Virus record (IMG/VR): IMGVR_UViG_2778261350_000002
Source of the DNA: a virus
Taxonomy: Duplodnaviria > Heunggongvirae > Uroviricota > Caudoviricetes
Length of the DNA stretch: 7,316 nucleotides
Direction: 5' to 3' (one strand)
Part shown: piece after piece, positions 7,188 to 7,316 of the stretch
How positions within the stretch are numbered: position 1 is the first letter of the stretch
Layout of the letters: every line of letters begins with the position of its first letter
Translations under genes and position numbers: made by a program
The notes under the pieces: model-generated
The model's database searches: none
What the model was told of the DNA's origin: nothing
The model's input: only the letters and a program-made list of their open reading frames with translations

Positions 7188-7316
7188 ATGTCAAGACTCA
7201 AGACTCAAGACTCAAGACTCAAGACTCAAGACTCAAGACTCAAGAATCAAAAAAAAAAAAAAAAAAACAAACAAACAAAAAAAAAAACACAAAACGACTA
7301 AAAAAACAAACTAAAA
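7188..7316 (+). CDS. neuO: 5' end of a phase-variable gene with a heptad-repeat N-terminus; candidate polysialic acid O-acetyltransferase (neuO-like). Partial: the window ends inside the low-complexity tract
   Basis: ATG 7188 with AGGA 7 nt upstream, then TCA and AAGACTC repeats encoding M-SRLKTQD-SRLKTQD-SRLK... The AAGACTC heptanucleotide right after the start codon, downstream of an endosialidase tailspike in a P22-like prophage, is the described arrangement of neuO in CUS-3. In this repeat configuration the ATG frame reaches TAA at 7299-7301. The frame with positions congruent to 2 mod 3 stays open to the window end. The catalytic part of the gene is not in the window. Confidence 0.5.
7191..7248 (+). 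repeat. Heptanucleotide tandem repeat (VNTR): 7 perfect copies of AAGACTC plus 1 degenerate copy
   Basis: Perfect period-7 tract 7191-7245. Written as AAGACTC, the units are at 7193-7199, 7200-7206, 7207-7213, 7214-7220, 7221-7227, 7228-7234 and 7235-7241, followed by AAGAATC (7242-7248). A 7-nt unit changes the reading frame with each gain or loss. Confidence 0.9.
7249..7316. repeat. Homopolymer A19 followed by CAAA/A-rich low-complexity sequence to the window end
   Basis: 7249-7267 is 19 consecutive A, then CAAACAAACAAAA AAAAAAA CACAAAACGACTAAAAAAACAAACTAAAA. Extremely A-rich and atypical for enterobacterial coding DNA. Confidence 0.9.

Follow-up and report, generated by a model that had tools for sequence, protein, structure and literature searches.

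The window, by which we mean the whole stretch of 7,316 nucleotides analysed here, belongs to a CUS-3-like prophage of the P22 type from E. coli K1, of which it represents the right arm. The window comprises a DNA-transfer gene similar to that of gp16, an Arc/Ant immI region with a sar RNA, an endosialidase tailspike gene and the start of neuO. The first 77 nt (1..77, plus strand) are the terminal part of IS100, an element of the IS21 family, which forms a 5' repeat boundary and was identified under istB of IS100kyp through matches of 100% identity. IS100 interrupts the P22-gp16-like DNA-transfer gene of the prophage, and the listed ORF at 27-1106 (TTG start), which starts inside IS100, is a fusion call. 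The sar antisense RNA was found at 2986-3052 on the minus strand (Rfam RF00262, 83.9 bits) within the Arc/Ant immI region, where P22-like phages typically encode it. The region between 1100 and 4000 is mosaic relative to CUS-3, with the CUS-3 match covering 63% of the window in 3 pieces.

The CUS-3-type tailspike, encoded upstream of neuO (4089..7034, plus strand), is 981 amino acids long, contains the Pfam domains Head_binding, End_N_terminal, End_beta_propel, End_tail_spike and Peptidase_S74, and is 96.8% identical to siaK1 of phage CUS-3. It is separated from neuO by an intergenic region (7035..7187, plus strand) that is conserved in at least 150 complete genomes and contains a promoter-like site at 7143-7171, which is a consensus match only. 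The start of neuO follows on the same strand (7188..7248), as supported by the sequence, by TRF and by comparison with other loci: an ATG at 7188-7190, the dinucleotide TC, seven perfect AAGACTC units at 7193-7241, and a variant unit, AAGAATC, at 7242-7248.

This segment corresponds exactly to the neuO poly-psi VNTR of prophage CUS-3, which belongs to the polysialic acid O-acetyltransferase gene of E. coli K1. In that gene, AAGACTC units begin two nucleotides after the start codon and are present in 2-93 copies, three units encode RLKTQDS, and a hexapeptide-repeat acetyltransferase follows (PMC3046976, PMC13001214). Slipped-strand switching turns the gene ON only if the number of units is a multiple of 3 (PMC3046976, PMC13001214), and the resulting phase state affects O-acetylation of the K1 capsule, phage resistance and immune recognition (PMC13001214). 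Both the spacing of the units relative to the start codon and the location of the VNTR directly downstream of the P22-like CUS-3 prophage endosialidase tailspike were observed in the window. The in-frame acetyltransferase body (GTTTTCCGTTGATG...) that should come after the VNTR was absent from the window.

In place of that body, the VNTR is followed by 68 nt of A/C-rich sequence. A run of 19 consecutive A residues (7249..7267, plus strand), which would be the start of a non-genomic tail, is followed by a low-complexity segment (7268..7316, plus strand) that reads CAAACAAAC, then an A11 run at 7277-7287, and then CACAAAACGACTAAAAAAACAAACTAAAA up to the last base at 7316. The original prediction had described an A19 run with (CAAA)-like units and further A-runs reaching the end of the window, and the sequence and base counts bear this out (56 A, 9 C, 2 T and 1 G; 82% A). 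The two A runs are the only homopolymers of at least 8 bases in the whole window, and no homopolymer of at least 9 bases was found elsewhere in the window or in the CUS-3 loci L001-L003, L005 and L006. The window contains 8 occurrences of A12, all overlapping within A19, where 0.01 would be expected from shuffled sequences, so that the tract is far beyond chance. TRF also marked the VNTR/tail region, and scans with Rfam and for promoters and terminators retrieved nothing within the tract.

Every base of the window agrees with the complete WGS contig NOOY01000063.1 (GCA_002519865.1, 7316 bp), and the two are equally long. Position 7316 is therefore the end of the contig, 126 nt past the start of the VNTR, and the assembly does not carry the tract any further; this is the very situation, a contig end with no genomic continuation, that the original prediction had named as speaking against a real tract. 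Of 5426 E. coli genomes, 2968 contain the IS100 segment from the other end of the contig with 100% identity and in as many as 25 copies each, and contigs of relatives begin or end at window positions 78-80. With IS100 at one end and the neuO VNTR at the other, the contig is thus bounded by repeats on both sides, and the tail begins within a repeat that was left unresolved at a physical contig end.

Short-read contigs typically carry repeats at both ends, and a contig that runs from an insertion sequence to a tandem repeat is the expected product of de Bruijn assembly from short reads. The 77-nt overlap with IS100 suggests that k was 77, a value commonly used as the top k-mer size. Since the array is truncated, the 8 units counted in the window are a lower bound, and neither the ON/OFF state nor the true unit number of neuO can be read from this contig.

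Three other public contigs (L003, L005 and L006) encode an identical 981-aa tailspike, share the same IS100 boundary and differ from the window by 0-2 mismatches over about 7.1 kb. Because the IS100 boundary is common to all three, it marks a clone. The first, contig SRR3973066_163 of the Logan assembly of SRR3973066 (L005), has 0 mismatches to the window across 7171 nt and breaks off after the first 30 nt of the VNTR, a length that fits k = 31. The second, from GCA_025784455.2 (L006), shows 1 mismatch and ends at the neuO ATG. The third (L003), a 305-kb contig of GCA_043166785.1, shows 2 mismatches over 7171 nt and reads through 13 perfect units to the neuO body (GTTTTTCGTTGATGATAATGG) and on into intS and chromosomal genes. 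None of these independent, near-identical assemblies carries the tract, and since L003 resolves the array without it, the same clone has a canonical neuO when the array is resolved.

The Logan contig is 100% identical to window positions 50-7220, and the same isolate may underlie both SRR3973066 and GCA_002519865.1. In L003 (7108-7900) the 13 units leave neuO out of frame, and only a 111-aa C-terminal gene was called there; the 18 units of L001 (1739-2515) and the 30 units of L002 are both followed by annotated full-length acyltransferases. The phase states of these three loci differ in a manner that agrees with the multiple-of-three rule.

We then compared the junction between the VNTR and its downstream sequence over a wider set of genomes. 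The low-complexity filter of BLAST masks the tail, and the test in E. coli rests on the positions at which flank alignments stop and on a canonical-junction query, which joined the last three heptamers to 281 nt of the neuO body. When window positions 6950-7316 were searched against 5426 complete E. coli genomes, 194 were matched, and in 40 of the 40 alignments listed the match stopped at 7250-7253. The canonical-junction query matched 158 genomes, in each case along its full length (100%) and with at least 99% identity, which indicates that every neuO-carrying complete genome in the collection has the canonical junction, in which the VNTR abuts GTTTT(C/T)CGTTGATGATAATGG, the start of the hexapeptide-repeat neuO body. 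The same junction was read directly in L001 (18 units) and L002 (30 units). Since the body is absent from the window but present in L003 and in 158/158 complete genomes, its absence reflects truncation of the contig rather than a different gene.

Scans of the sequence collections gave a consistent picture. As a positive control, they retrieved 11 viral contigs with the canonical junction and 3-32 units, whereas a 24-mer spanning the A-tract junction had 0 matches in viral contigs and 0 in genome representatives. Its single metagenome match (L007) was rejected as a chance hit, as this contig is unrelated, contains many A/T runs and has no heptamer array. The distal 30-mer of the tail returned 0 exact matches in each of the viral, metagenome and genome collections.

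No related locus carries the A19/A-rich tract as a component of neuO: the A19 run is absent at this position from L001, L002, L003 and L008-L018. The comparison with other CUS-3-like prophages proposed in the original prediction thus went against the tract, which was found in 0/158 complete genomes, in 0/11 viral contigs and not in L003. The view in the original prediction that neuO has no such tract proved right in L001, L002 and the 158 complete genomes, and no A tract is mentioned for the neuO locus in PMC3046976 or PMC13001214. The window therefore differs from CUS-3 neuO, where the VNTR always abuts GTTTT(C/T)CGTTGATGATAATGG and no reference contains an A19 or A-rich tract.

These comparisons bear on the possibility that the A19/(CAAA)n A/C-rich tract is real sequence that truly follows or interrupts the neuO VNTR of this isolate, having arisen by de novo expansion, insertion or replacement, and that it either inactivates neuO or adds a second slippage-prone element. 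In such a case the contig would end there due to the difficulty of sequencing homopolymers. The tract does sit in a deposited assembly, and variant heptamers exist in some complete or viral assemblies (L002 and L010, see below), so that the array is not always perfect. Nevertheless, we consider real sequence highly improbable. It is missing from 158/158 complete genomes, from 11/11 viral contigs and from a contig with the same IS100 boundary and 2 mismatches over 7171 nt (L003); it falls exactly at the contig end, roughly a read length beyond the last unique base; and reads of 100-250 nt would normally span 68 nt. The lack of any homopolymer of at least 9 bases in L001-L003, L005 and L006 argues in the same direction, as does the stop codon that the ATG frame meets.

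Examination of the reading frames across the tail located this stop. With the assembled number of repeats, the frame of the neuO ATG reads MSRLKTQDSRLKTQDSRLKNQKKKKKNKQTKKKTQND and ends at a TAA at 7299-7301, which lies within the A/C-rich segment. The lysine-rich peptide of the original prediction, SKKKKKKQTNKKKNTKRLKKQTK, is a correct translation of 7247-7316, but the frame that it follows is not the one set by the neuO ATG, from which it is offset by 2. The third frame across the tail also hits a stop, and no coding sequence was found 3' of the tract, the contig stopping at 7316.

Homopolymeric phase variation is represented by the poly-A/G/C contingency loci of Neisseria, Haemophilus, Campylobacter and Helicobacter. 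The tract resembles these in being a long mononucleotide run in the 5' part of a surface-modification gene, and it would be slippage-prone in principle. It differs from them in being located at a contig end and in having no downstream frame, no conservation and no length polymorphism among relatives. In contingency genes the tract lies in the ORF or promoter of a gene that continues downstream and varies in length between related strains; here the ORF stops at 7299-7301 with nothing past 7316, and the 158 complete genomes, 11 viral contigs and 3 near-identical contigs are all without the tract. The suggestion that the tract forms a second tier of frame control stacked on the heptamer is therefore not upheld, given its absence from the complete genomes, the viral contigs and L003, the stop in the ATG frame and the lack of a downstream coding sequence. 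If true, it would have meant a two-tier slippage switch, mononucleotide on heptanucleotide, in a known virulence modifier, and the evidence makes its reality very unlikely.

Judging from the context and from the comparison with related loci, the A-rich tail is very probably an artefact of some kind, introduced in sequencing or assembly. The original prediction had offered a contig-end artefact as an alternative, and this is the alternative that agrees with the data: the contig stops at 7316, its relatives do not have the tract, and other assemblies break there too. More specifically, we think with high confidence, on the basis of sequence comparison, that the tail is no part of the E. coli or CUS-3 prophage genome and arose when the 3' end of a de Bruijn contig built from short reads was extended into a dead end. 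Low-complexity or homopolymer tails of short-read de Bruijn assemblies, which are unclipped tips derived from low-quality read ends, likewise occur at a contig end beside a repeat longer than k. The likeness to a de Bruijn tip extends to the absence of the tail where near-identical strains resolve the repeat, and to a sequence that is unique to this record.

Such a tail could arise as follows. The k-mers that lie wholly inside the AAGACTC array would form a 7-step cycle, and the assembler would be unable to cross the VNTR. The sole non-repeating path leading out of the flank-anchored k-mers would then be provided by the error-laden 3' tails of reads ending inside the array, and contig extension would have followed these faulty tails until they were exhausted, 126 nt after the array start. 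If a read through an A3C2G1T1 repeat lost phase or signal, its base calls would be dominated by A, followed by C. The real genome would instead continue with further AAGACTC units, then GTTTT(C/T)CGTTGATGATAATGG and the hexapeptide-repeat body of neuO.

We infer that the tail derives from degraded base calls. The order of base frequencies in the tail (A>>C>T,G) follows that in the heptamer (A3>C2>G1=T1), and the distal half of the tail retains heptamer-like fragments (CACAAAAC, GACT and AAACT). When aligned to (AAGACTC)n, this distal half scored 9 as compared to 5.3 +/- 1.4 for shuffled sequences, a marginal difference (p ~0.03, range 0.03-0.06). The composition and the heptamer fragments are thus compatible with a decay of base calls inside an A3C2G1T1 repeat, the statistic being marginal.

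The marginal similarity between tail and heptamer leaves some room for a chimera, in which real foreign A-rich DNA, from the host or a eukaryotic contaminant (e.g., a (CAAA)n/poly-A retroelement tail), became attached to the VNTR through a chimeric read or through a spurious overlap of low-complexity k-mers. This would also be an artefact, and no feature of the prophage. The succession of A19, (CAAA)n and A11 resembles eukaryotic A-rich simple repeats, which is a point in its favor. We nonetheless regard a chimera as improbable, though less so than real sequence: for a join through k-mers, the VNTR and the foreign DNA would have to share a long identical stretch, and none is evident; the GACT and CACAAAAC fragments fit a degraded heptamer; and exact matches to the distal 30-mer were not found in any of the viral, metagenome or bacterial/archaeal genome collections.

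A long A run at the end of a sequence could also point to poly(A) from RNA or cDNA, or to signal-free cycles following adapter read-through, and the original prediction had mentioned an adapter or polyadenylated origin. A search of the whole contig, including the stretch between the VNTR and the A run, found no TruSeq, Nextera, P5 or P7 sequence, and adapter read-through was rejected on this ground. The origin from a polyadenylated transcript found no support either, as the record is a genomic WGS assembly and the tail, with C, G and T interspersed, is not clean poly(A). We rate this explanation the least probable of those considered, with a chance that is close to negligible.

The preferred explanation, a dead-end extension of a short-read contig, carries a practical caution. 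The neuO VNTR is a routine breakpoint of draft contigs assembled from short reads, whose last bases can be junk; accordingly, neither the repeat number (8 in this case), nor the reading frame, nor a "new" downstream tract should be read from such contig ends. Determination of the neuO phase state needs long reads, Sanger sequencing or fragment analysis.

The precise point at which the tail begins depends on the last unit of the array. The variant unit 8 of the window, AAGAATC, represents a single C-to-A change and is also unit 8 in the complete genome of MS15052 (L002). This substitution may be genuine, or may be a short-read error at the limit reached by flank-anchored reads in both cases. 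Since it is possibly genuine, the junk may start at either 7246 or 7249.

Additional variant units were observed in other arrays. The 30-unit VNTR of MS15052 (NZ_CP082097.1, 1739-1955) contains five, with units 8-10 reading AAGAATC, AAGAATC and AATAATC and units 19-20 reading AAGAGTC and AAGTCTA, a pattern that is unique among the 158 genomes. These variants are either genuine interruptions that stabilise the array or short-read polishing errors located about 50-85 nt in from each flank. In the viral record IMGVR_UViG_2537562173_000011 (L010), the array lies on the minus strand (4124-4228) and comprises 15 units, four of which are imperfect, with AAGCCTC and AAGTCTC alternating. Deposited assemblies thus do contain imperfect heptamers.
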